Shown: piece after piece, positions 8,640 through 48,870 of the stretch
How positions within the stretch are numbered: the first letter of the stretch is position 1
Layout: every line of letters begins with the position of its first letter
DNA from: Eledone cirrhosa
Lineage: Eukaryota
Assembly: GCA_964016885.1 (NCBI GenBank)
Contig: OZ024745.1
Location: 35,898,001-35,962,000, forward strand
Direction: 5' to 3'
Length of the DNA stretch: 64,000 bases
Made by a program: the position numbers and the translations under genes
Notes under the pieces: model-generated
What the model was told of the DNA's origin: nothing
The model's database searches: none
The model's input: only the letters and a program-made list of their open reading frames with translations

Positions 8640-9480
8640 TAGATGGAAAGTAATCCGCTAAATTAAGAGTGTTTGAGAGGAAACTTTCATAGTGTTTTTA
8701 TTTCGCATTTTATGGTATTTATGTGATTGGGGAAAGTTTTATCAAGTATCCGATAGGACTATTTATGTATATTTGTAACTATATGCTTGTTACTACCTAA
8801 ATTTCAGATGTCTATCCCATTGCTGTAAGTTTAATGATGAGAATTATAATCTGCAAATTTAGGGATATTACCTGAGTTTATAACGTGAACTTTTGTCGAA
8901 TTAGAAAGTTTATGTGAGTGGTGCGTAAGTGGTATTCTATCATTATATAAATTCCTGTACTTATAGTTGCTTTGTTACTACTAGTTAGTTCTTAGATCTT
9001 TTGTTGCTGCAATATGTGCGCGCCTTCATACTCATACAATGCCTATTTGTGGTAGATGTGATAGTTAGAGTGTTAATAGAAGAGACAGTTACATGGTCAT
9101 TAACCTTATCATTAGTGTCATTTGTGTTAGATTCAATATTTTGATCGTACTTAGATCTACGTAATGTGCTATTTTAAGTGATTATATTTGGATTTCTACT
9201 TCTATGGTTATTGGAATCCAAGTTGTATCGGATTTTCTCATTATATCCTGATCTAATTAAAGCCTTCTCACTATTAGAGTATACTATAGAGATGCTGTCA
9301 GATTCCTGTTTTACTATAGACTTAAGTATAGAACTAGGGTGGTTTGAGAAGTCATTTACATAGAAGAAATGCCCACCTGGTTTGTGTTAAGGTTTATATA
9401 GTCTAGCATTTAATTCCAAGGTGGCATAACTACTTTATTATATAGCTATCGTTATATTTAAGCCATTTCCTTTAAAACCC
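8640..9480 (-). pseudogene. Decayed Naiad-type PLE fragment (RT thumb to linker)
   Basis: Manual minus-strand translation gives LYKP*HKP..YVNDFSNHPSSILKSIV..ALIRSGYNEKI and ILDKTFPN/HKYHKMRNKNTMKVS, collinear with the intact PLE protein in this window. Contains stops and frameshifts. Confidence 0.75.
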
Positions 9481-10544
9481 ATCTGTAATGCTTTCTTTTA
9501 TTCTTTCCAATTTTCTCCTCTTGATAAATGCATCGTTTCTTTCCAGGGATGTTGTTAAAAAATAAACATCATTTGGTCATTCAATAAGAGAATCCTGGTC
9601 GCTCTATGAACCTTTCAACCAATGAACGTATCAGCCGACCCTCGTATGTTTTGGTAAATGCTGGTTGTGTTCACCTCTACTTGAAACTTAACTGATGCAT
9701 TTAGCTATTTTTGATAATTGAATACAAATATATTCACCAAGTTTAGGCAGTAAATGTTTCAAACAAGGTGACCTATGAAACTCCTTCATGTGTGCAAACT
9801 TTGAAATAAGAGTGACAACTAATTGATATCCTGCAGGATTAGATATCCAAGCCGAGGTCACATATAAGCAACAAGAGAGACGAGGAAGAAATAAATTGAG
9901 GAGACAAAATCTAATCAAATTGAAAGATCTTTAACTTATGCTTCATTATACTAAGAAATGTATTTCATCAAATGAATCCCCATTCAACGTTTGGTACTTT
10001 AAACAGTTCATTGTTAAGTAATCGAAAGGAGATCCATCAAATAAATTTATTCTCGAGGAAATATTTATCAAAAGAAGTTATCAAAATAAGGAGAAACTGA
10101 TGAAAAGGAATTCTGGACTCCGGCATTTATTTCGAAATACCCATAACATCCTATACAAATCACTAAGCAAATATTATTTCAGTTATATAACTATTACTTT
10201 ATACAAACAAAAAGCCTCAATTACTTCTTTACAATTATAGAGAAATAATTGGACCAAAATCTTTGGTTAGATTATTGACTATATCGGGCCAAGTAAATCA
10301 TTCCATACTTAGAAATTCATCGGAATTACTATGCAAGGATAAGAGTTAGGTAAATAAATGATTAATAAACATATAACTGTATACAAAATTAATAAAACTT
10401 TGAAAATTAATGCAATGCATGTTTGCTTAAGCTATGGAGAACGTCCCTAAATCCGCCTCCAAATTGCACGACACACATCCAGTTTCTATGATACATTGTC
10501 CCTATAAAGCATTAAGCACAGACCGGAGACATTTATTCATTCAT

Positions 10545-14273: not shown

Positions 14274-14315
<42 letters not shown>

Positions 14316-14320
<5 letters not shown>

Positions 14321-15074
14321 TATGTACACGTACATACATATATGTATACAGACGTACAGTAGTATGTATATGTATATACATACATGCACACATATATATA
14401 TGTACGTATGGATTCACCGAACATTTATTATAATGCTCGGTGTGTTTGTAAAGAAACATCCCGTATTAAGCCGTAGTGTCCAGCAACCATCGTTGCTCGT
14501 TTGAGCGTACATATATATATATGTGTGCATGTATGTATATACATATACATACTACTGTACGTCTGTATACATATATGTATGTACGTGTACATACTTATAT
14601 TTAAGTAACAGCCGTACTAAGAGTGGGAAATGAAATTTCGTTTCATTTTTCCTGTTTATCGTATTCGGTGCACCCGGCCGATTAACCCACTCGATATGCA
14701 AATTGGGCTACTCAGCCGTTAATATGCATAAGGTAAGTATATACGTTCAACAATCTGGCAGGAAGGTATACGTTGCTGATGATAGCTAATAAGCTTGAAA
14801 CTAGTATTGCGCAGTCCTTTGTCGGTGTTGAACAAACGAGCAACGATGGTTGCTGGACACTACGGCTCAATACGGGATGTTTGTTTACAAACCCACCGAG
14901 CAGTATTATAAATGTTCGGTGAATCCATACGTACATATATATATGTGTGCATGTATGTATATACATCTACATACTACTGTACGTCTGTATACATATATGT
15001 ATGTACGTGTACATACTTATATTTAAGTAACAGCCGTACTAAGAGTGGGAAATGAAACTTCGTTTCATTTTTCC

Positions 15075-15078
<4 letters not shown>
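14316..15078 (+). mobile_element. Retrozyme-like element: inverted arm (14316-14503) plus 1.35 copies of a ~424-bp unit, in (TA)n
   Basis: 14506-14660 repeats at 14930-15078; 14316-14503 is the reverse complement of 14833-15020; carries an HHR. Confidence 0.8.
14770..14812 (+). ncRNA. Minimal type I hammerhead ribozyme
   Basis: CGTTG-CTGATGA-tAGCT aata AGCTt-GAAA-CTAG-TA-TTGCG. Palindromic CTAG loop replaces stem III; stem I is weak. Confidence 0.7.
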
Positions 15079-15150
<72 letters not shown>

Positions 15151-16881: not shown

Positions 16882-17032
16882 ATAATTGTTTCTACTTTAG
16901 GCACAAGGCCAGCAATTACCCAGTGCATTACTGGTACTTTATTTTATCGACCCCGTAAGGATGAAAGGCAAAGTCAACCTCGGCGGGATTTGAACTCAGA
17001 TCGTAAAGGGACGTAACTATGCTGGAAAGCAT
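16882..17032 (-). mobile_element. 5'-truncated SINE family A with 16-bp TSD
   Basis: TTTCTATATATATAAT at 16871-16886 and 17035-17050; near-identical to the copy at 32170. Confidence 0.85.
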
Positions 17033-17042
17033 AGTTTCTATA

Positions 17043-17325
17043 TATATAATGAAGGAGGTGTGGTGAGGAACCAGATGGACCATAACACACCAGAGTACTC
17101 AATACTTAGGGTAGTAGAGTGGGTAATAGGGACATGTTTGACCCAGACGACAGAGCTCAAGCCGTTTCGACGGCTATTTCTGGACTCAAATAGCCGTCAA
17201 AAAGGCTTTAGCTCTGCCGTCGGGGTCAAACATGTTCCTATTACCCACTCTACTACCCTAAGTATTGAGTACTCTGGTGTGTTATGGTCCATCTGGTTCC
17301 TCACCACACCTCCTTCGTTATATAT
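17043..17325. mobile_element. Fold-back copy of the 36755-37448 family (3' half of the HHR plus terminus)
   Basis: ~135-bp arms at 17043-17178 and 17187-17325; homologous to 36755-36892. Confidence 0.85.
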
Positions 17326-17915
17326 ATATATACAATATATATATAGGTGTATGCTTGCAAGAAAGATTGCCTCCGTAGGCGGTATGCCGGGTGAGCACTC
17401 AATGCTCGCGCTGAGCAAAGTATAATACTATAAGAATAAAGAAACACATATTCAGTGTTGCATCATAACATTAAATAACATATTACATATGTTTCACTAT
17501 GGATCAGCTCGGGGAATGACCTAATATTGACCGAATCTGACTCTATTATCGAAAGATCATCATATATCATTCCTATGTCATCCCATCTCCGATTCTATGC
17601 GTGAAATTACTCGGTTAGTAGATATATACAGCGCATTCTAACAAGGCGGTATTTTGCGTCCGCTCAATTTTCTCCTCACTTGTTGTTCCTCTTTAGTAGT
17701 TGTTCCTCTTTAATTCGCCAAAATGTACAAGTAACCCTGTGTCTGTCTGCTTTTATTCGCGTCCAATATGCCATGGAATAAATAATTTTACACATGATGG
17801 AATGAAACTAAAGATATTCCCGAAGGTTTTCCCGGGAAAAGTGATTGTCCGTTTTTCTGGTGTTTTATTCTAGTTTATTTCGTCCTGTGCCCTCTTCCTC
17901 TCTTAGCCATGCGTG

Positions 17916-18556: not shown

Positions 18557-18600
18557 ATTTATATATATATATATATTTATACATATATATATATATATAT

Positions 18601-19262
18601 ACATTATGAAGAGAGAAGAAACATTTAGATATAATTAGTAATAAAATGTATCATACCTAAACTGCTCCTAGATTCCTCGACTACGTAGTTTCTGTGTGTT
18701 TCTAAATATATTGTTAATAACTCCCTCTGGTCGAGCAATCTTTGAAGTGTAGGGACTGCTGGAAAGCTTCCATTACTCATACTTCTCGCCTCCTTCACCA
18801 CCTCTTCTACGGCTCCGCCTCCGTGGTATTTTCTTCGGGGTTATAAGAGGCTTAGCTCTGTTTCTCGACCGTTATATCGCGTGAGTATCTCCCCCTCCGC
18901 CTTTTGGGATTCTTTCTCACGTCGTGTAGACGCGTTCTTGAGACTAGTAAAATGAGGTATGCTCTTGATAAGTCGGCAGACCTCGCAAGGACTCTATATC
19001 TTTATGATGTATTGTTTTTGTTTATGCCACGAAACTACGTAGTCGAGGAATCTAGGAGCAGTTTAGGTATGATACATTTTATTACTAATTATATCTAAAT
19101 GTTTCTTCTCTCTTCATAATGTATTTTTAACTCTGATACTGATTCAGTCTAGTTCAACCGGATTGGTCTGTCCCAGTCATTCATTGAGCAACATCGGTGA
19201 AGTTGGCACCCTTAACTCACGGTTGGGTGCGGATGCATTGTCCGCATGTATCTGTGTGTTTC

Positions 19263-20272: not shown

Positions 20273-20311
<39 letters not shown>

Positions 20312-20371
20312 GAAAGGTATAGAAAATATTGTATCAAAAAGCCAACAGTATACCATAATATATATATATAT

Positions 20372-21028
20372 ATATATAGATAATTTAATATATCAACCAA
20401 CATAAGCGCACAGATGTACGCTAATGCCAGCAAATACACAGGTTATGTCATAGTACCTAGGTGGTTCAATGCAGGAGGATGCAGAACAATAATATAAAAG
20501 ACGTAAAATAAGAAAATCTTTTAAAAATTAAAAAAAAAAAAATGTTAACTTACTTACTTAAATTTTCACTCCAACTAATTAGTTTCTGCAATGGGATAAA
20601 GACAGTTACGTAATCTAACTGTCGAGAATTCATTGCGTCATCAGGGAGTCAATTCTCAGCTAAGTCTCCAGGCAATGCGCGGACACTGGCGGCTCATATA
20701 AAAATAATAATAATTCGGTAGATGGAGCAGCTAGCGGGGACTGAATTCCATGCACTGAAATCCTCACTGCCTCTAGTCAAATGGCCGATTCTAAAGAATC
20801 AATCACGTGACACAGAGGCTAGTCAGTAGCAATGGGATGGTAAGATGACAGACGCCTACTAACACCCCCAAAAAAATTTTAGAAGTGGTTTTGGCAGGTT
20901 TGCTCGACAAATCATGGATTTGGAGATACATATAGATAATTTAATATATCAACCACCATAAGCGCACATATGTACGCTAATGCCAGAAAATACACAGGTT
21001 ATATCATAGTACTTATTTTACGTCTTTT
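20372..21028 (-). mobile_element. Retrozyme-like element (~555-bp unit, diverged relative of 47971-48787)
   Basis: 20375-20457 repeats at 20931-21011; 21012-21028 is an inverted copy of 20495-20511; collinear homology to the 48-kb element. Confidence 0.8.
20568..20649 (-). ncRNA. Type I HHR with long stem II
   Basis: ACTCC-CTGATGA-cGCAATG..CATTGCa-GAAA-CTAATTAG-TT-GGAGT. Confidence 0.8.
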
Positions 21029-22632
21029 AGTTTAGCGATGTGGGTTTTAATGTTTAGTGAGAAAGGGGGGGCAAACCAAATTATGTTCCTAGTTCTATTT
21101 CTTTTTTGGCCTTTGGAATTATTGTAATGCTTTCTATTATAGTTGTTAAGGTTGTTGCCGTAATTAAAAAAGTTGTTACTTTGTTTAGTTTGTCTATCAT
21201 TATCTATGTACACAATCTTATCAGCATATCCTGCTCTAGCTAATGCTTCATTATAGTATTGGGCCTTTTCGTCGAAAATCTTTCTATTCGACGAGATCCT
21301 AGAGATACGTTTTTGAACAGAGTTTACAATAGTGTTTTTGACAGATCTGGGGTGGTTAGAGTTAAAGTTGACATAGTTTAAGTTTTCATTCAACTTGTGA
21401 AAAGGATAGTGGAGACATGTGTTGAGATTTAATGTTATATCTAGGAAATTGACTATTCTATGGTTGTTCTCAATTTCTATTTTAAGATTAAAGTAATTAA
21501 AAAATTTTGTAATTTGTTTACATTTTCTATTTAGTTCAGGGTTATTATTATTAATAAGTAAAAGCATGTCATCTCTATATAGACCTCCGGTAGTACCAGG
21601 TATTTTCCTATGTAGCGAATTGATTAAAAATAAGCCCACAAGGTCAGTTACCTGAGCTGAGTCGGATGATCCCATAGTTATATCAAAATTGCTATCTCTA
21701 TCTGCTCTGGTCCATAATTTGTCATTAAATTCTATCAAAGTTTTCCTAGCCGATAATATAATATGCATTTCTTTGCTAGTTAGGTCAGTATGTTTGAATG
21801 CGTAATTTAGTGCCTTATTTAGTAGACTAGGGGTAATAGAAGAATAATAGTTAGCTATATCAAGTTGAATAAACCTATTATTATTGTTATATTTAATTTG
21901 CTTAAACCACTCAACAACCTCTCCAGTTCCCTTCCACAAGCTCAGGTTAGATACACAATCCAAGTTCTTAATTTGCTTTATCACCCTGTCAAGAATGTTT
22001 TTGCTTAATTTGCCCAGGTCCGATTTTGATGGTGCGATCAATCTAACTGGCAGGTCATTTTCAAAATTCCTCTTGTGATCCTTCATATTGATCTTCGGTT
22101 TCCTGGGCACGAAAGGTTGTGTTCTGTTCTCAATTTCCAACTCGTGCATTATACAAGATGCTTCGACATTCATTTTCTCAAGTTCGGCCTTATCTGCTAC
22201 CTTGTACTTTTTCCTCAGCTCTTTCAGTATGAGGCCATTATACATGTCTTTCTGCACTCCATAGAGGTTGTTGGTCTTGTCAGATTTCACCAAGATCTTC
22301 TCAGTTTTCTCTAAGCTCTCAATGTTATCCTTAATGCCTTTCAGATATTCCTGGCCTTTGAAGTTTCTCTTGAATTTGACCCCTTGTATGATAGAAATTA
22401 TATCGTTTTCAAAGTCAGATAAAAGTTTGTTAGGGGGTGGATTTCTTTTAGATTTGAAAACTTTGTTTAAGTCCGAGACATTTTCGTTTGCATTAGATTT
22501 ATCAAAGTGGAATGCACGCCACCTGATTCTCCCTATAAAAGAGTCAGATTTATCTATTAATTGTTTTATAAAGTCTATGTTTCTAGGTAGAGGTATGTCT
22601 TTTAGAGAGGAAGTAATCTTAAAGAATTCCAT
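21013..22632 (-). CDS. PLE reverse transcriptase, N-terminal ~535 aa of the element ORF
   Basis: Motifs SLKDIPLP, RIRWRAF, KSDKTNN, IQLDIANYYSSI, TMGSSDSAQVTDLVG, LYRDD, NFLDITL, SNHP. The last four residues derive from the adjoining repeat. Confidence 0.93.
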   Translation of the reverse strand: MEFFKITSSLKDIPLPRNIDFIKQLIDKSDSFIGRIRWRAFHFDKSNANENVSDLNKVFKSKRNPPPNKLLSDFENDIISIIQGVKFKRNFKGQEYLKGIKDNIESLEKTEKILVKSDKTNNLYGVQKDMYNGLILKELRKKYKVADKAELEKMNVEASCIMHELEIENRTQPFVPRKPKINMKDHKRNFENDLPVRLIAPSKSDLGKLSKNILDRVIKQIKNLDCVSNLSLWKGTGEVVEWFKQIKYNNNNRFIQLDIANYYSSITPSLLNKALNYAFKHTDLTSKEMHIILSARKTLIEFNDKLWTRADRDSNFDITMGSSDSAQVTDLVGLFLINSLHRKIPGTTGGLYRDDMLLLINNNNPELNRKCKQITKFFNYFNLKIEIENNHRIVNFLDITLNLNTCLHYPFHKLNENLNYVNFNSNHPRSVKNTIVNSVQKRISRISSNRKIFDEKAQYYNEALARAGYADKIVYIDNDRQTKQSNNFFNYGNNLNNYNRKHYNNSKGQKRNRTRNIIWFAPPFSLNIKTHIAKLKDVK

Positions 22633-22768
22633 TTTTCCAGTTATAATATAAAGCGCTCAACAGTATTGGAGCAAGATACATGGAAAGTTATATTTAAAAT
22701 TGTTGGGTTACAACTAGTAAATATTTATAACTGATATAAAAGCACTCCACAAATATTTGGAGTATATT

Positions 22769-23689
22769 TACAATATTAAATAAATGGAAACTATATTTAT
22801 AAAACCATATTTATTTCATTATATATATTTCGGGGATATCATATTAACAATATGCTATGCCTTCCTCAGACAAAATACAATATAAACAGTTTTATAGATA
22901 AATAGATTCGACATACCGTCACAACACCGACTTGCATTTGGAGAGGTTGAGCTGGCAGTGAAAAAATTTTACACAGAGAGAAAGAAAGAGAGAAAGAAGA
23001 AAGAAAGACAGAAAACGAAGAAAAGGAAGAAAAAGAAGAAATGCATGGAGCAAAGTAGAGAGATGGAGAGATAGATAAGGAGAAGAGCTTCATGTAAAGA
23101 AACAGAAAGGGATATATATATATAGAGAGAGAGGAAATAGAGATAGATACATATATATATAGAAAATTAGGTAGTGGGAGGTCAGTTGAGTAAATGTATC
23201 AATGGTACATTTATTTATTTATTTATTTATTTATTTAGCTCTAGTATTAATGTAAGGGAAATATATAGAGAGAGAAAGAATATAGAAAAAAATAGCGAGA
23301 GAAAAATTTAAAAAATAGCCAGATATATTCGAGGCGTAAAAAACCCTATGTTTTAATGTATTAGTATTTATAAAACTTCCACTATATTGTAAATATCAGT
23401 AATTCCTGAATGAGACAAGTATCCATAGTGTGTGAAAATTAATTATCTTATGTTTAGTTTTTTTAAAAAATTCATATGTTTATGTGATAGCTACAAACAT
23501 GTGAATCCACATGATCAACTCTGCAAACTCTAAGTTCACGGAAAACATTCTCAATGTGGTATAAAACTTTGAGTATACAAATATGTGTATTATTATTCCT
23601 GTCTTTACTCTACAAGATTATCTATCAAGCAGAAATAGAGAGCAGATTTCAATATACTAATAAAAATATATATCAGAAACAAAACTAAA
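22769..23689 (-). repeat. pLTR copy 1 (~920 bp)
   Basis: Near-identical reverse complement of 24814-25738. Confidence 0.92.
22812..22877 (-). ncRNA. Minimal type I HHR in pLTR, ~180 nt upstream of the ATG
   Basis: Identical to 25630-25695. Confidence 0.75.
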
Positions 23690-24323
23690 CATTAAAACCC
23701 ACATCGCTAAACTATTTTTCAAAGCTCTTGATAATCACTTCCCTAGAACACATAGGTATCACTCAATTTTCAATAGGCATACAATTAAATTAACCTACTC
23801 ATCCACCAAAAATTTAGCACAAAATATTAATAGAATAAATAATAGGAACTTAAAACCTAGTGATAATAGCATAAATAATATACAAGTTAACAAATGTAAC
23901 TGTAGAGATAGATCTAAATGTCCGTTAAATAACAACTGCTTAGTTAAAAATATAGTATACAATTGTAATGTTAATACTGACTCTAATTCTTTTAACTACG
24001 TCGGTTCCACATCGACGGAATTTAAACTTCGCTATAATAACCACAAGAATTCTTTCACAGATCCAAGCAAAAAATCTTCAACGGCACTATCAGGCGTACT
24101 CTGGCAACTTAAGCTAGATAACGTTAGATATTCGACGGCTTGGAATATAGTCTCAAGAGGGATTCCTTTTAATTCATCCTCTGAGACATGTGACCTCTGC
24201 GCAGAGGAGATATTCTTTATACTAAAATCTAAAAATTCCCTTAATCTACGGACAAATTTATTCAGTTGTTGCAAACATAGATTAAACTCAACGTTTAAAT
24301 ATAAATTTAAATTTAAAATGTAG
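23685..24323 (+). CDS. PLE linker + GIY-YIG endonuclease, stop-free 212-aa frame without its own start codon
   Basis: Manual translation LNIKTHIAKLFFKALDNHFP..CNCRDRSKCPLNNNC..IVY..YVGST..FKLRYNNH..CDLCAEE..CCKH..KM*. The Cys motifs match Naiad-type endonucleases. Confidence 0.9.
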   Translation, partial: LNIKTHIAKLFFKALDNHFPRTHRYHSIFNRHTIKLTYSSTKNLAQNINRINNRNLKPSDNSINNIQVNKCNCRDRSKCPLNNNCLVKNIVYNCNVNTDSNSFNYVGSTSTEFKLRYNNHKNSFTDPSKKSSTALSGVLWQLKLDNVRYSTAWNIVSRGIPFNSSSETCDLCAEEIFFILKSKNSLNLRTNLFSCCKHRLNSTFKYKFKFKM

Positions 24324-24813
24324 TATATTTAGTTTGTTTTATATTTATATGGGAAACTAGCCGATAAATCTTTGATTCCTTCTTTTTATTCTTTTTATTG
24401 TTTATTTTTATTTTATTTTTATTTAAACATTCCTCATGAAAAATTAAGCTACCCTAAAAGCTGATGCTCCAAATATTTTGAATAAACCTTACACTAGATA
24501 AACCTCTATATTATATATAAGTACACATGTAGACCATTTTGGGCATCATAAACTTTTTGAAATGATCTTTGCTAGATGTGATTTGATGGATAATTTTTGG
24601 CTTTGTCTGTTTTTCGACTCTGATGCTTATAATGAACTTGGCAATATATTGTCAACTAATTTTGAAGGGTTTATCTTTGTGGTTTATTTTTATTTTTTAT
24701 TATTGTAGTATTTTCTAATATTTTTTATTTTTATTTTTAATATCTTTAATATGTAAATTTTTTAATATGTAATATTTTTAATATGTAATATTCTTTCGTA
24801 ATATTTTTATTTT

Positions 24814-25265
24814 TTTAGTTTTGTTTCTGATATATATTTTTATTAGTATATTGAAATCTGCTCTCTATTTCTGCTTGATAGATAATCTTGTAGAGTAAAG
24901 ACAGGAATAATAATACACATATTTGTATACTCAAAGTTTTATACCACATTGAGAATGTTTTCCGTGAACTTAGAGTTTGCAGAGTTGATCATGTGGATTC
25001 ACATGTTTGTAGCTATCACATAAACATATGAATTTTTTTAAAAAACTAAACATAAGATAATTAATTTTCACACACTATGGATACTTGTCTCATTCAGGAA
25101 TTACTGATATTTACAATATAGTGGAAGTTTTATAAATACTAATACATTAAAACATAGGGTTTTTTACGCCTCGAATATATCTGGCTATTTTTTAAATTTT
25201 TCTCTCGCTATTTTTTTCTATATTCTTTCTCTCTCTATATATTTCCCTTACATTAATACTAGAGC

Positions 25266-25296
<31 letters not shown>

Positions 25297-25732
25297 ATGT
25301 ACCATTGATACATTTACTCAACTGACCTCCCACTACCTAATTTTCTATATATATATGTATCTATCTCTATTTCCTCTCTCTATTTATATATATATCCCTT
25401 TCTGTTTCTTTACATGAAGCTCTTCTCCTTATCTATCTCTCCATCTCTCTACTTTGCTCCATGCATTTCTTCTTTTTCTTCCTTTTCTTCGTTTTCTGTC
25501 TTTCTTTCTTCTTTCTCTCTTTCTTTCTCTCTGTGTAAAATGTTTTCACTGCCAGCTCAACCTCTCCAAATTCAAGTCGGTGTTGTTACGGTATGTCGAA
25601 TCTATTTATCTATAAAACTGTTTATATTGTATTTTGTCTGAGGAAGGCATAGCATATTGTTAATATGATATCCCCGAAATATATATAATGAAATAAATAT
25701 GGTTTTATAAATATAGTTTCCATTTATTTAAT

Positions 25733-25738
<6 letters not shown>
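24814..25738 (+). repeat. pLTR copy 2 (~920 bp)
   Basis: Near-identical reverse complement of 22769-23689. Confidence 0.92.
25630..25695 (+). ncRNA. Minimal type I HHR in pLTR
   Basis: TATTTTGT-CTGAGGA-aGG..CATATT gtt AATATG..CCc-GAAA-TATATA-TA-ATGAAATA. Confidence 0.75.
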
Positions 25739-25817
<79 letters not shown>

Positions 25818-25894
25818 GTATATATATCTATATCTATGTATATATATATATATCTATGTATATATATATATGTATGTATATATATATATATATG

Positions 25895-25999
<105 letters not shown>

Positions 26000-27099
26000 C
26001 GGAATATAGTGTTAATAGTATGTTAGGGATGTAGAGGCTTTGCCTCCTGATGGTAGGCTTGTAGTCGTCTGTACAAATAATAGTAGCACACTAGTGATAC
26101 GTAGACTTAGTAATGTCGTAGTTTTGATAATAGCACATGTACTATATTCTCAAGGAACTAAAGGAACATAAATGAAACTTGTCAAGATAGAGAATCTACG
26201 AAAATATTGAAACAGAAAGACTCATTCGCGTTATCCTTGTTTTTCAAATGTCCCTTCCATTTGCCGTCTATTGCCTCATTTCATCCCCCCCCTCTTCTTT
26301 TTTATTTCGTAATTATAAGGGGCATTAGATTCATTCTCTAGACTGTCATGCTCTACCAGCTTTTAACAAACGTTAATTTTTTTTTAGATAAATAAATAAA
26401 AAGATAGACAGATAGCGAAATATAGTGTAGTGTTTCAGATATGCAGTATTAATGATGCTGTTGTTGTGTAGATATGGTGGTGTTGATGTGCTATATTCGG
26501 TATGTAAAGTGGGGTAGTTTTGTTGTTTTTTAGTGATATGTATTATAATGTTAATGGTATATGTATATATATCTCCACAGACTGACTAATCTATAAAATA
26601 ATACCAGACTGAAGCAATTACTGAGGTCGATATGATATCGACGAAAAATATAAAGATTGATTTTTCTTTTCGATCTGAATATATTAAAATAACTTGTATT
26701 AGGATCAATATATATTGAACTTTATTTCTATAGTTAATATTAAGAAAATACAATTATGTTAGTATTTGTTATATTTTTAAACCATATTTATTCAAAATTA
26801 TATATAGATTTATAATAGTTTCTAAACACCAATCAAGAAAAAAAAGAAATATTTAATATAAAGACCATCTGGACTACATTTAATATTGCTTCGAATTCAC
26901 AAACGAAAACGTTGGTGATTTAGAGCCAAGGTATCACATAAAAATATTGCCAACATTTCTGCAGAGGCAATACAACATCTAAATAATTAAAAACATAACA
27001 CCTGTCATGGGGAAAATTCATTACAGGTTTAGAAACAAATTCTATAAAATATTTAAAATGTAAAATACACTTTCGTTAAAACAATATAGAAATATTTTT

Positions 27100-29388: not shown

Positions 29389-31506
<2,118 letters not shown>

Positions 31507-32357: not shown

Positions 32358-32537
32358 GTGGTGGAGTATCTGAAAATTAATAACTACCAATTTGCATATA
32401 GCAAGACTAGGCTGTGTAACTACTAAGGAAACATTTGTAAACACTTGGAATAAATTACCTTTTTATGATGTTTAACTGTTTTATTAATCGTTCTTTATAT
32501 ATATATATATATATATTCTATATATATATATATATAT

Positions 32538-32833
32538 AAGAGACGTAAAATAAGAAAATTATAAAATTAACTTACTTACTAAAATATCACTTCCAACTAA
32601 TTAATATCGTCTTCGGAAAATATATTTACTCCATTCCAGAAACTAATTAGTTGGAAGTGATATTTTAGTAAGTAAGTTAATTTTATAATTTTCTTATTTT
32701 ACGTCTCTTATATTATTGTTCTGCAACCCCATGCATTGAACCACAATGTTATTAAGACAAAACCTATATATTTGCTAGCATTGATATGCATGCATCTGTA
32801 TGTATATATATGTTACTAGATATGAATTCTTTA

Positions 32834-32836
<3 letters not shown>
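32538..32836 (+). mobile_element. Truncated fold-back copy of the 532-bp retrozyme-like family
   Basis: 32538-32602 is inverted versus 32643-32709. 32635-32836 is homologous to 48061-48255 (GAAACTAATTAGTTGGAAGT). Confidence 0.8.
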
Positions 32837-32896
<60 letters not shown>

Positions 32897-32898
32897 TT

Positions 32899-33099
32899 AT
32901 TTATTAAAATAACAGATTTAAAGTTTAAGCAAAGAATCGGTGCTTTCGCCCTTAACGTTAAGGGTGAAAGCAGCGATTCTTTTGCTTAAACTTTAATCTG
33001 TTATTTTAATAAATATTTGCTCTACGGTTCTTATATATTTGATATATATTTATCCTTATCGAGCCCTCTTTGGATTTTAGTCTTCAAATTTATTATTTT

Positions 33100-33220: not shown

Positions 33221-33307
33221 ACCTTTACCGAAACGGTTTCGAGTCTCAAAAATAAATGGATAGTCCTTGCGTGTCTCCATTGAAAAGATAAACTCTCGTC
33301 AGAAGGT
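33221..33307 (-). ncRNA. Canonical type I HHR
   Basis: ACCTT-CTGACGA-GAGTTT..AGACTC-GAAA-CCG ttt CGG-TA-AAGGT. Confidence 0.88.
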
Positions 33308-34202: not shown

Positions 34203-34223
34203 ATGTATATATATGTATATATA

Positions 34224-36120
34224 TATTAATTGAAAATATTAACAAAATAGATATTCTTGTGATCAATTATATTTTATTATACATATTTCAGAGGCACTGA
34301 GTTAAGTTCAACAGTACGTCCTCATCAGATAAAATAAAATGATACATGTCATACCCTGACATAGTAGATGGTTAAGATTAAATCAAGGTAGTGATTAACT
34401 TATGACAAAACTCAATATTTATACCTTGATATTGAGAACATGAGATAACATAATACAAACAATAGAGAGGGTGCATCAATATAACAGTTATAAATTTTGT
34501 TATTTTTAAAAACTACTGGAGAAAGAGGAGGGAAAGGAAAGGATAGAGAGAGGAACAGCTGATGTGATAATATTTTTAGTAGGTGGCTTGAGAAGACTTA
34601 TGAAAGATGATTAAAGAGAGATAGAGAGACAAAGGGGAGTAATTTATGTTCAAGTTTATATACACACAGATTTATGTATAATCAACATGCGTCCAGAACA
34701 ACATAGTTGGCGGTTAATTTTCAATATATTTAATTTAAGTTATTTCAGGGTAAAGAACAATATTTTAGGTTTTAAAAGTTAATAGGTATTTGTATTAATA
34801 TTATAATATAATTATGTTTAATTTCTAAAATTCTAATTTTATGAAAACAAATTTAATGGATTTACGAAACACGAGAAAGAAAAAATATATATATAATGTT
34901 TTATATCCTCACGAAGGTAATCTTTACCAAAATTACTTATAATATTGACAACTGTTTCTATAATATAATTTATAAGATAATTATAGTTATAATTATTAAA
35001 AAATGTATTGTTAAATAGTTTGAGTGCCTAAAGTTTATATAGGGACGATATTTTATTTACGGTTGTTAAACAACAATATAGAACTAAATATGGTAAAGAA
35101 AAATATAATTGAATTCTTTAAAAATTACGACCTTAAAAAGAGGTAGAAAGTGGTAACAAAATAGTTAATTTCCTTGTTGTTACCCTTAACTTAAACTCTG
35201 GTTTGTATTACCCTTTCCATGAACATCCCCAGAAGATCCATGATTTGTGCTGAATCAGATGATCCCATGGTAAATTCGAAGTTTCTATTTCTATCTGAGC
35301 GGGTCCAATACTCATTGTTGAAGTTAATTAGAGTTCTTCTAGCAGTTAATATGATATCAATTTCATCCGTAGTTAGATCAGTATGTTTCTAAGGGTATGA
35401 TAAAGCCTTATTTAGTAGGTTAGGCGTAATGGAAGAGTAATAGCTTGTTATGTCCATTTGGATGAATTTACGGTTTTTCTTATCATCTATATTATTATAC
35501 CATTCAATGACTTCATTTGTATCCTTCCACAAGCTCAATTTAGACCTCAATTTCAAAGTAGGTAGAATTCTATCAATAATATTTTTACTGATTACTCCAA
35601 TATCCGATTTGGATGGAGCAATCAGTCTAACTGGCAGGTCTTCCTCGAAATTTCTTTTGTGATCCACGGCTGTCTAGGTATAAGAGGCTCTGTTCTTCCT
35701 TCAATTCCTAATTTAGCAATTAATTTATATGCATCATTATTAATATCTCTAAGCTCTTCAGCCGGGGCTTTTTTATAATTTTTCCTTAGTTCTATTAAAA
35801 TCAAGTTATTATATTCTTCTTTATTTATCCCATATAAATTATTTGTTTTGTCCGATTATACCAATATTTTATTAACTTTTTTTATTTCCGAGATTTTTTC
35901 TTTTAAAGTTCTAAGGTATTGGTGACCTATATATGGGTTTTATTTTATTGGTAACTTACATATGGGTTTTATTTTATCTAAAGAGGACGTACTGTTGAAC
36001 TTAACTCAGTGCCTCTGAAATATGTATAAGAAAATATAATTGATCACAAGAATATCTATTTTGTTAATATTTTGAATTAATATTAATAACTCTGGAAAAC
36101 TGTTTTTGTTGAGTGCTTCC
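34224..36120. mobile_element. Rearranged decayed Naiad PLE
   Basis: pLTR minus from 34224; RT piece plus ~35005-35220 (LYRDD, FLVVTLNLN); RT piece minus 35221-35930 (SDKTN, IQMDITSYYSSI, TMGSSDSAQ); pLTR piece plus 35966-36120. Confidence 0.85.
34267..34340 (-). ncRNA. Minimal type I HHR
   Basis: TATTTTAT-CTGATGA-gg..GTACTG..CAGTGC..-GAAA-TATGTA-TA-ATAAAATA. The plus-strand copy at ~35970-36040 has a mutated core (CTAAAGA). Confidence 0.8.
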
Positions 36121-36219
36121 AATCTATTGTAAAACTCATTTTTTCATGTATTCACTGAACCTTGTTTAACTCTTAAATATATAATTTTGGATTTTAGTCT
36201 TCAATTTTATTATTATTAC

Positions 36220-36275
<56 letters not shown>

Positions 36276-36597
36276 GATCAGCTAAGGTGAAACAATTGTT
36301 CTCGGTATGGTGAACTAACTGTTGTGTAACCACTTCTATATATATATATCAATATATATATATATACATATATATGCAGAGGTTATATTTAATTTGTTGG
36401 GATTCAACAAGCTTTAAAATGTTTATAACTGATATAAAGCACTCAACAGTAGTGGAGTAAATATAGAATATATTAATAAATGGAAACTATATTTATAAAT
36501 CATAATTATTTTATTATATATATTTCAAGGGCGAATTTCAACCGTTGAGGTTGTCTTTTTTCCGCGTATGTCAATATTTATTTATAAAACAAATCTG

Positions 36598-36662
36598 TAT
36601 TTTATCTGATGAAAGCGCACCATAATTATATTGGTCGCCCTTGAAATATATATAATAAAATA
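36598..36662 (+). ncRNA. Minimal type I HHR in a mini pLTR insertion (~36380-36705)
   Basis: TATTTTAT-CTGATGA-AAG..ACC..GGT..CTT-GAAA-TATATA-TA-ATAAAATA. Inverted partial copy at ~36470-36535. Confidence 0.8.
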
Positions 36663-36700
36663 ATTATGGTTTTATAAATATAGTTTCCATTTATTGATAT

Positions 36701-36755
<55 letters not shown>

Positions 36756-36847
36756 CAAAGGAATTGTGGTAAGGAACCAAATGGACCATAACGGACCAGA
36801 GTACTCAATACTTAGGGTAGTAGCGTGAGAAATAGGAAAAAGTATGA

Positions 36848-36941
36848 CTCCGACGGCAGAGCTCAAGCCGTTTCGACAGCTATTTCTGGACTAAATTAGA
36901 ATTTTAACCTGGTGAATAAATAGCCGAACTTTTCAAGGGGG
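36848..36941 (-). ncRNA. Type I HHR, U3:A8 variant
   Basis: Inverted copy of 37342-37435. Confidence 0.6.
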
Positions 36942-37341
36942 TACTTCCTTATATGGGAAGATTGTAGTTGTCTGCTATAAGTAAAACGTATTCGGCCAAT
37001 TCTATCTTAAAATAACAGGGCTGGGGGAACTGATGCTACAAGGCCCGATGGGCTGCAACGGGGTAAGCGGAAGGGGAAAACAGACGAGGAAGAAAATAGG
37101 GGGTGGAAGGAAACGATAGGATGAGACAGGGGGAAGAATGAGACAAAGAGGAAAAGAAAAGAGATACATTTACCTGTGTAAGCTGGGGTACGCTTGACCG
37201 CTCCACTCACTCCCCTATTGTTCTACAGGCAAGTTCAGCCACCCCTACCCCCCACCAAATGCCACAATAGACTTATTTGTGTTTACAACAAATTTTAACC
37301 AATCCTCTTGACAACCACAATCTTCCCATATAAGGAAGTAC

Positions 37342-37435
37342 CCCCTTGAAAAGTTCGGCTATTTATTCACCAGGCTAAAAATTCTAATTTAGTCCAGAAA
37401 CAGCCGTCGAAACGGCTTGAGTTCTGCCGTCGGGG
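37342..37435 (+). ncRNA. Type I HHR, U3:A8 variant
   Basis: CCCC-TTGAAAA-GttCGGCTATTT..AAACAGCCGTC-GAAA-CGGC ttgagttct GCCG-TC-GGGG. Confidence 0.7.
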
Positions 37436-37447
37436 TCATACTTTTCC

Positions 37448-37487
<40 letters not shown>

Positions 37488-47904: not shown

Positions 47905-47971
<67 letters not shown>

Positions 47972-48000
47972 GCATTGCCTGGAAACTTAGCTGAGAATAG

Positions 48001-48082
48001 ACTTCCCTGATGACGAAATGCTTCTCCGTAAGTTTCTTCGGAAACTCTGTTTATTCCCTTTCAGAAACTAATTAGTTGGAGT
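48001..48082 (+). ncRNA. Type I HHR
   Basis: ACTTCC-CTGATGA-cGAAAtG..CcTTTCa-GAAA-CTAATTAG-TT-GGAGT. Confidence 0.75.
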
Positions 48083-48532
48083 GAAATTTTAGTAAGTAAG
48101 TTAATTTTTATAATTTTCTTATTTTACGTTTTCATATTATTGTTCTGCATCCCCATGCATTGAACCACAAAGTTACTAAGACAAAACCTATATATTTGCC
48201 GGCATAGGTATGCATCTGTGTATATATATGTTAGTAGATATACTAATTCTTTATAATTATCTCCAAATTATTTTGTCGAGCCAAAATTGGCCAAAACTGC
48301 TACTATAGTTCATAGTAACGGTTCGGCTGCTGTCTTCTTAACAAACCACTCCTCACTGATTAACCTCGATGTCACGTGATTGATTCTTTTGAATTTGCCA
48401 CCGACGCAGTAGGCAGTGATTTTTTTCAATGGCTTGGAACTTAGTCCACGCTTTGCTTTTTTCCATCCACTGAATTATTTTTGTATAAGTTCCCTGTGTC
48501 CACGCATTACCTGGAAACTTAGCTGAGAATAG

Positions 48533-48614
48533 ACTTCCCTGATGACGAAAGGCTTCTCCGTAGGTTTCTTCGGAAACTATGTTTATTGCCTTTCAGAAAC
48601 TAATTAGTTGGAGT
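48533..48614 (+). ncRNA. Type I HHR
   Basis: ACTTCC-CTGATGA-cGAAAGGC..GCCTTTCa-GAAA-CTAATTAG-TT-GGAGT. Confidence 0.8.
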
Positions 48615-48781
48615 GAAATTTTAGTAAGTAAGTTAATTTTTATGATTTTCTTATTTTACGTCTTTCATATTATTGTTCTGCATCCCCATGCATTGAACCA
48701 CAAAGTTACTAAGACAAAACCTATATATTTGCTGGCATAGGTATGCATCTGTGTATATATATGTTAGTAGATATACTAATT

Positions 48782-48870
<89 letters not shown>

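Follow-up and report, generated by a model that had tools for sequence, protein, structure and literature searches.

In the genome of Eledone cirrhosa, one copy of a Penelope-type retroelement is split into two halves that lie back to back and share 31 bases. The copy lies in a 64,000-nucleotide window (GenBank assembly GCA_964016885.1, contig OZ024745.1, positions 35,898,001 to 35,962,000 of the forward strand), and its layout is real as assembled. The left half carries the reverse transcriptase (RT) on the minus strand, and the right half carries the nuclease on the plus strand. This arrangement was probably produced by twin priming of the L1 type, in which one partial-tandem sense RNA was primed at the (TA)n end and inside the open reading frame (ORF). 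The parts of the copy, including its two pseudo-long terminal repeats (pLTRs), are as follows (window positions).

21028 to 22632, minus strand: ORF residues 1 to 535, with the ATG at 22632; N terminus, RT core and most of the region behind the RT core, with motifs RWR at residue 37, DKT at 118 and YRDD at 352
21028 to 21058, minus strand: 31-bp duplicate, copy A; ORF residues 526 to 535, at the internal end of the inverted piece
22633 to 22768, minus strand: spacer from the family's usual 3′ end to the next ATG, containing the second end site ~80 nt further on
22763 to 23689, minus strand: pLTR copy 1, 927 bp, with a hammerhead core starting at 22869
23684 to 23689: inner head-to-head junction, a 6-bp microhomology with no palindrome and no extra letters
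23684 to 23714, plus strand: 31-bp duplicate, copy B
23685 to 24323, plus strand: open frame for ORF residues 526 to 737 and the stop; CxCx5C linker at residue 596, GIY-YIG domain, CxxC at 694 and CxH at 721
24324 to 24813, plus strand: single-copy part of the 3′ untranslated region (UTR)
24814 to 25738, plus strand: pLTR copy 2, with a hammerhead core starting at 25638 and a predicted cut after 25687; stops at the family's usual 3′ end

Both halves of the coding region are free of stops and frameshifts. The minus-strand frame remains open to residue 535 at 21028, and joining the two frames yields an ORF of 525 + 212 = 737 residues. The copy as it lies cannot encode the whole protein, because the frame of the RT half ends after four residues of flank sequence and the first methionine of the nuclease half is its last residue. 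Split copies hide complete ORFs from annotation. The element unit is 3765 nt long, of which 1551 nt separate the stop from the next ATG, and the inverted piece extends 1057 bp beyond the ATG to include the 927-bp repeat.

Element sequence is absent to the left of 21028, and the inverted element piece contains no flank DNA. The two copies of the 31-bp inverted duplicate are 100% identical. At the inner junction the pieces share ACTAAA, and a match of at least 6 bp at a random head-to-head joint has p = 0.0035 (200,000 draws). In the 3765-nt unit, the two halves break off no more than 31 nt apart, an agreement with a probability of about 0.017 by chance.

The pLTR at 22763–23689 is an inverted copy of 24814–25744 (927 and 931 bp, respectively), and the two sequences are 98.8% alike. 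They differ by six substitutions, three of which are at simple-repeat edges, and by one 4-bp microsatellite indel. Four letters are common to both copies at positions where most reads differ, which argues that the copies come from one lineage. At site 22920/25587 they carry C and A, respectively, and both alleles are common in reads of the family: the A allele accounts for 35076 of 52766 depth in public run X3 and for 9 of 583 in one mate class of run X8.

An initial annotation, made from the sequence alone, had described the locus as an intact ~737-residue Naiad ORF hidden in two opposite-strand pieces with twin-priming geometry. That geometry is borne out by the 31-nt overlap and the head-to-head inner joint, as are the ACTAAA microhomology, the stop-free 525 + 212 reconstruction and the recent age of the insertion. 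The pLTR divergence and the uninverted copies that it named as checks have been obtained (the latter are described below), and the duplicate, put at ~29 bp, measures 31 bp. The inverted piece was also said to run ~1 kb past the ATG through a whole hammerhead-bearing pLTR. Its length and the hammerhead motif stand, and “whole pLTR” can mean only the shared repeat, the 5′ edge of which is the truncation point.

Family and clade of the element

A protein search with the RT half scored 8000 candidates and found 258 proteins, of which the best 120 were analyzed. The leading RT-half matches among these 120 are 39 to 42% identical, and the named ones come from Argonauta hians. The same 120 include 73 homologues of at least 680 residues. 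All 73 are matched by both halves and have the nuclease at the C terminus, and in 69 of them the two halves are in register within 5 residues.

Public reads were compared with 20460–24813 only, using 4 of 10 runs and the joints as listed. The best run has a word share of 0.54, so that the reads possibly come from another species or individual. An uninverted joint at the duplicate occurs in X8 raw reads (35 reads with 5 starts, 72 with 3, 6 with 3, and 52 with 3) and in one X2 contig, and uninverted family copies therefore exist. Together with the in-register fit of both halves to the same full-length homologues, this joint indicates that the halves belong to one family, as the initial annotation had supposed. 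In addition, 5298 X8 reads, along with X1 and X2 contigs, pass at 22763 from element sequence to a TA run. This position is equivalent to the right-hand end of the split copy, which is thus the family's usual 3′ end. A second family end is located near 22676–22698, about 80 nt beyond the first.

Other inversion joints between pLTR and ORF appear in the reads at 23266–24028, 23277–24075, 22777–24122 and 21369–23461. Each of these four weak rows has sides of 22 to 36 letters and a single start or a single contig, and they faintly suggest that further head-to-head joints of this sort occur in the family.

The element appears Hydra-like by its motifs, where named Hydra families are compared by description rather than by sequence or tree. 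Naiad elements are described as having an N-terminal GIY-YIG nuclease, DKA in place of DKG, a CCHH motif and no canonical hammerhead (PMC8557442). The Hydra clade, in which the octopus family Hydra-1_Obim is listed, is characterized by a C-terminal GIY-YIG nuclease, DKT, RWK, a CxCx5C linker, CxxC and CxH around conserved E and N, no CCHH, a canonical hammerhead and (TA)n insertion targets (PMC8557442). The C-terminal nuclease, the hammerhead motif and DKT of the split copy contradict the first definition and fit the second, and the Naiad label of the initial annotation is therefore rejected.

Indeed, the nuclease is C-terminal also in the uninverted reads, which departs from the Naiad domain order. 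DKT at residue 118 is the conserved motif (present in 69 of the 73 long homologues, with RW[KR] in 61), and a DKA at 147 falls outside the conserved column. The CxCx5C, CxxC and CxH motifs match the Hydra linker and nuclease. Between Y617 and Y630 there is one cysteine (619), in a column that is alanine in 64 of 71 homologues, and hence CCHH is absent. The split copy thus resembles Naiad elements in its Penelope-like RT, GIY-YIG nuclease, (TA)n target, and tandem and inverted insertions, and differs from them in every one of the four defining features. With the Hydra clade it shares the single ORF in which RT is followed by GIY-YIG, the CxCx5C, CxxC, CxH and DKT motifs, a 3′ hammerhead motif and the (TA)n target. 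It differs from that clade in having RWR for RWK and a 3765-nt unit, where Hydra elements are generally <3 kb (listed families span 1.1–3.0 kb; PMC8557442), a tendency rather than a strict criterion. The greater length of the unit is due to its 1.4-kb 3′ UTR.

The plus half is assigned as a putative GIY-YIG domain on the basis of its predicted fold, which has a predicted local distance difference test score (pLDDT) of 89. The best structural match is I-TevI (Z 9.0, root-mean-square deviation 2.2, 88 aligned residues), followed by T4 EndoII and UvrC, and the top five rows are titled as, or are taken by us to be, GIY-YIG nucleases. Foldseek gave no match to this fold at E ≤ 0.001, though GIY-YIG chains ranked first. 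No Pfam family scored above cut-off in either half, nor in any of five full-length homologues tried, and a PDB sequence search with the RT alignment returned one match, which is unrelated (E 0.51).

All invariant residues of the alignments (including YRDD and the Y, G, R, H, E and N of the nuclease) are present. The split copy differs at 12 of the 117 columns that are at least 90% conserved in 71 homologues; five of these deviations are common to at least one of the six nearest proteins, one to a neighboring element in the window, and six to none. The reconstructed protein, which the initial annotation took to be functional, is a candidate for a functional one: its catalytic residues are present, but six conserved columns are unlike any of the nearest relatives. 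A hammerhead core (CUGAnGA/GAAA) with stems I to III can be drawn in both pLTRs. It can also be drawn in two diverged relatives in the window that have different stem II sequences. A search of Rfam at E ≤ 5 gave 15 matches, all of them microRNA models on TA tracts and none a hammerhead, and the focal hammerheads fold as single strands no more stably than shuffled sequences (z 0.42 and 0.09). Thus, hammerhead cutting is only predicted.

Copies like this one show that the Hydra-like family was active in recent times. A metagenome survey, biased to intact RT and short-read contigs, recovered 77 related loci, of which 74 have a C-terminal nuclease. Opposite-strand protein matches were found in five of them, and an inverted piece ahead of the ORF in seven (L053, L055, L059, L060, L063, L072 and L075). 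In L075:1–132, an inverted piece from within the ORF (RT residues 263 to 300, 98%) stands head-to-head before a full ORF, on a contig that stops short of the outer end of the piece. Another metagenome contig (L048:1–5083) carries two full tandem units with a 2427-bp period (99%) and three hammerhead cores, and may be a real tandem or an assembly loop.

Probable twin priming and the alternatives

The two halves likely derive from a single template, a sense RNA holding pLTR-ORF-pLTR. The endonuclease would nick a TA in the (TA)n tract, and cDNA 1 would be primed at the family's usual 3′ end and copy 2057 nt back to codon 526. On the other target strand, a TA end inside an older host repeat would prime cDNA 2 within the ORF at codon 535, and the 2662 nt copied by cDNA 2 would extend past the ATG and take in 927 nt of the upstream pLTR. 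Because cDNA 1 would run 31 nt past the second primer, the overlap would result; the cDNA ends would then pair over 6 bases, followed by fill-in.

Twin priming accounts in a single step for the 31-nt coincidence of breakpoints, for the microhomology at the inner junction and for the lack of element DNA to the left of 21028. The copied length totals 4707 nt and exceeds one 3765-nt unit, in agreement with the view of the initial annotation that the template was longer than one unit. Of the two forms it proposed, tandem or circular, the tandem is favored, because the pLTRs carry two common family alleles at 22920/25587, as is expected of a tandem source. In L1 twin priming, microhomology occurs at the inversion junction (PMC2912911), and an internal duplication with a median of 22 bp is reported for 283 of 1703 inversions (17%; bioRxiv 10.1101/2024.08.27.596794). 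An overlap of 31 bp is thus nothing unusual for this process. Purified protein of Poseidon, a Penelope element, cuts and extends both target strands and starts inside the RNA; it needs no ribozyme cleavage, and in vitro its main substrate is uncut RNA, with no reads ending at the cut site (PMC11167929). We also considered whether the 31 bp represent a family “tail”, set by a fixed spacing of two RT sites. This idea was dropped, because the second end of the family lies about 80 nt past the first.

The flanks of the insertion comprise three features.

20379 to 21012, minus strand: older host repeat, a non-coding partial tandem with a unit of about 556 bp and a hammerhead core starting at 20644 (minus); retrozyme-like
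21013 to 21029, plus strand: 17-bp inverted piece of the host repeat, the reverse complement of 20495–20511, head-to-head with the repeat
25739 to 26008: degenerate (TA)n tract of 270 bp, the right flank and likely the first target

The host repeat adjoins a TA run at 20358–20378, is related to the sequence at 47.9–48.9 kb of the window, and in contigs normally continues otherwise after 21012. The last two letters (TA) of the 17-bp piece form the outer junction. On the simplest reading, a head-to-head arm already belonged to the host, comparable to the pair at 36370–36707 described below, and the second primer was a TA nick within this arm; alternatively, the 17-bp piece could be a templated insertion made during repair. 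With no target duplication, the target DNA between the nicks was likely lost. In the upstream unit of the host repeat, the next TA run lies 117 bp away from the TA of the outer junction, so that the loss was likely about 117 bp, if the inverted arm of the host ran to that TA run. Arrival of host repeat and element in one event is disfavored, because contigs differ from the host copy by 7–11% (mismatches of 16/216, 29/377 and 12/110 letters) and from the best element pieces by 0–1% (among the 24 pieces listed of 8668).

The present order could instead reflect an assembly flip, or later recombination between inverted repeats. The locus contains two inverted repeat pairs (31 bp and 927 bp), both near perfect. 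A flip of 21059–23683 yields a full, uninverted and intact pLTR-ORF-pLTR copy whose 5′ end bears 31 bp in inverted orientation, and a flip of 23690–24813 yields one permuted unit and 31 bp more, preceded by an inverted pLTR. Either could be the true or original order, and both isomers retain the junction letters. Such insertions are said to trouble assemblies (Craig et al., PMC8557442), a collapsed assembly was weighed for two permuted Adineta copies (Arkhipova et al., PMC3846280), and the joints listed for the compared runs give no read support for the junctions of the split copy. A flip nevertheless requires a second event, and the window, which has no N and resolves both the 270-bp degenerate TA tract and two non-identical pLTRs, was probably assembled from long reads. 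In Adineta, moreover, small-RNA polarity switched between the halves, so that such layouts can be real (PMC3846280). We therefore regard a flip as unlikely. A template in the form of a hammerhead-made one-unit circle, with both target strands acting as primers and copying continuing beyond one full turn, strikes us as quite improbable. In that case cDNA 1 would meet the start of cDNA 2 and displace 31 nt, and cDNA 2 would pass the start of cDNA 1 and displace 927 nt. The copied length exceeds one unit, the hammerhead motif is intact in both pLTRs, and retrozyme circles have been reported (10.64898/2026.07.22.740005). However, a circle read twice would give initially identical pLTRs, whereas these differ, at one place by a common family polymorphism, and the preference of the Poseidon protein for uncut RNA also speaks against a cut and circularized template. 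If a circle were the true source, the locus would provide genomic evidence for two things, namely integration of an autonomous Penelope element from a circle and a general origin of Penelope head-to-head ends by twin priming on one sense RNA.

Staggered DNA breaks also leave inverted duplicates, and an ordinary full copy could have been inverted after insertion by such breaks in the ORF and at its 5′ edge. The flank itself contains a 17-bp inversion and has lost DNA, and an older relative at 34223–36210 shows an internal inversion with a deletion. This history would need a break exactly at the 5′ edge of the element with nothing left behind; the outer join falls on a TA, its AT-rich surroundings resemble family targets, and the 17-bp piece fits a head-to-head arm of the host repeat itself. 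Repair after insertion is thus very improbable. Two RNA molecules, or two separate abutting insertions, would accommodate the differing pLTR alleles, and the canonical inverted ends of Penelope elements can be read in the same way. Two templates would leave the 31-nt coincidence to chance (0.017), and the duplicates are identical and four rare letters are common to both pLTRs, so that such an origin seems exceedingly improbable.

Several observations weigh against twin priming on a tandem RNA. A target-site duplication is the normal outcome of L1 twin priming, but the left flank (host repeat) and the right flank (TA tract) show none; Penelope insertions that lack one are on record (PMC3846280). 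The 2-bp microhomology (TA) at the outer junction is not significant (chance 0.21). Neither junction of the split copy was seen in reads or contigs among the joints listed for 20460–24813 in the 4 of 10 runs, and a split ORF with overlap was found in 0 of the 77 metagenome loci, a sample with the bias noted above. The allele argument for tandem over circle is moderate, since a single site is visible and short non-autonomous copies crowd the region around it. Finally, all three possible orders share the junction letters, and therefore the sequence by itself cannot fix the original order.

The shape of this insertion is well known from human L1 elements and has been noted once in Penelope elements, and the element is a new member of a known clade. 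In the rotifer Adineta vaga, the 5′ and 3′ halves of two Pen3 copies are permuted, overlap and are inverted relative to each other (Arkhipova et al. 2013, PMC3846280). There too, the whole ORF is recoverable only from two overlapping opposite-strand halves, and the layouts were argued to be real from small-RNA polarity. Those copies are on detached contigs with little flank, whereas both flanks are present here; and self-priming at palindromes (favored there for inverted ends) or a collapsed assembly was discussed, whereas the split copy has a 6-bp microhomology and no palindrome. With L1 5′ inversions (PMC2912911; bioRxiv 10.1101/2024.08.27.596794) it shares the usual 3′ priming plus internal priming, junction microhomology and a short internal duplication. 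Unlike them, it lacks poly(A) and a target duplication, derives from a template that exceeds one unit, and has GIY-YIG instead of an apurinic/apyrimidinic endonuclease. The forward part averages 2.6-fold longer in L1, whereas the inverted part is longer here.

Inverted 5′-truncated copies are standard for the Penelope class (PMC8557442). The split copy resembles these canonical insertions (PMC8557442; PMC11167929) in its head-to-head inner junction from the pLTR and in the extension of both target strands. The canonical inverted arm ends at the usual 3′ end or tail, whereas the arm described here passes that end and stops inside the ORF. We found no literature naming twin priming for Penelope elements, in a search whose coverage mostly excluded subscription journals. 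For head-to-head ends, self-priming on an antisense template at palindromes was proposed first (PMC3846280), and cutting and extension of both target strands was demonstrated later (PMC11167929). A second arm that starts in the ORF where the first stops, with microhomology and without a palindrome, is the type of case that separates these models. Such a copy points to twin priming on one sense RNA, though one locus cannot settle the question of head-to-head ends.

Related elements elsewhere in the window

At 36370–36707, two pLTR ends form a short head-to-head pair flanked by TA runs. One of its arms stops at the usual 3′ end, and the other extends about 80 nt beyond that point. Read depth over 22650–22941, which matches this pair, is 20 to 100 times the depth over the ORF, suggesting an abundant non-autonomous derivative. 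The decayed relative at 34223–36210 retains RT residues 91 to 336 on the minus strand, with residues about 343 to 413 inverted alongside and the nuclease missing. A hammerhead is located at 34328 (minus), and an inverted pLTR arm, 95% alike, occupies 35967–36088. An uninverted, frameshifted Hydra-like copy, about 44% identical in RT, is found at 29507–31497 (plus), and faint remnants of a further related ORF occur at 8679–9497 (minus).

A non-coding family of tandem units of about 530–560 bp, retrozyme-like and ending at TA runs, is represented at 47927–48868, 32496–32904 and 20275–21012, with hammerhead motifs that have a long stem II at 48007, 48539 and 20644. Additional matches to the hammerhead core are located at 33302 and 33787 (both minus), 14776 (plus) and 16216 (minus), the first two of which sit in a two-unit tandem of about 480 bp. 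Short local inverted duplications, 93–100% alike, are present at 1715–2089, 14311–15081, 17031–17336, 18594–19129 and 36834–37449, and local inversion seems to be common in this region.

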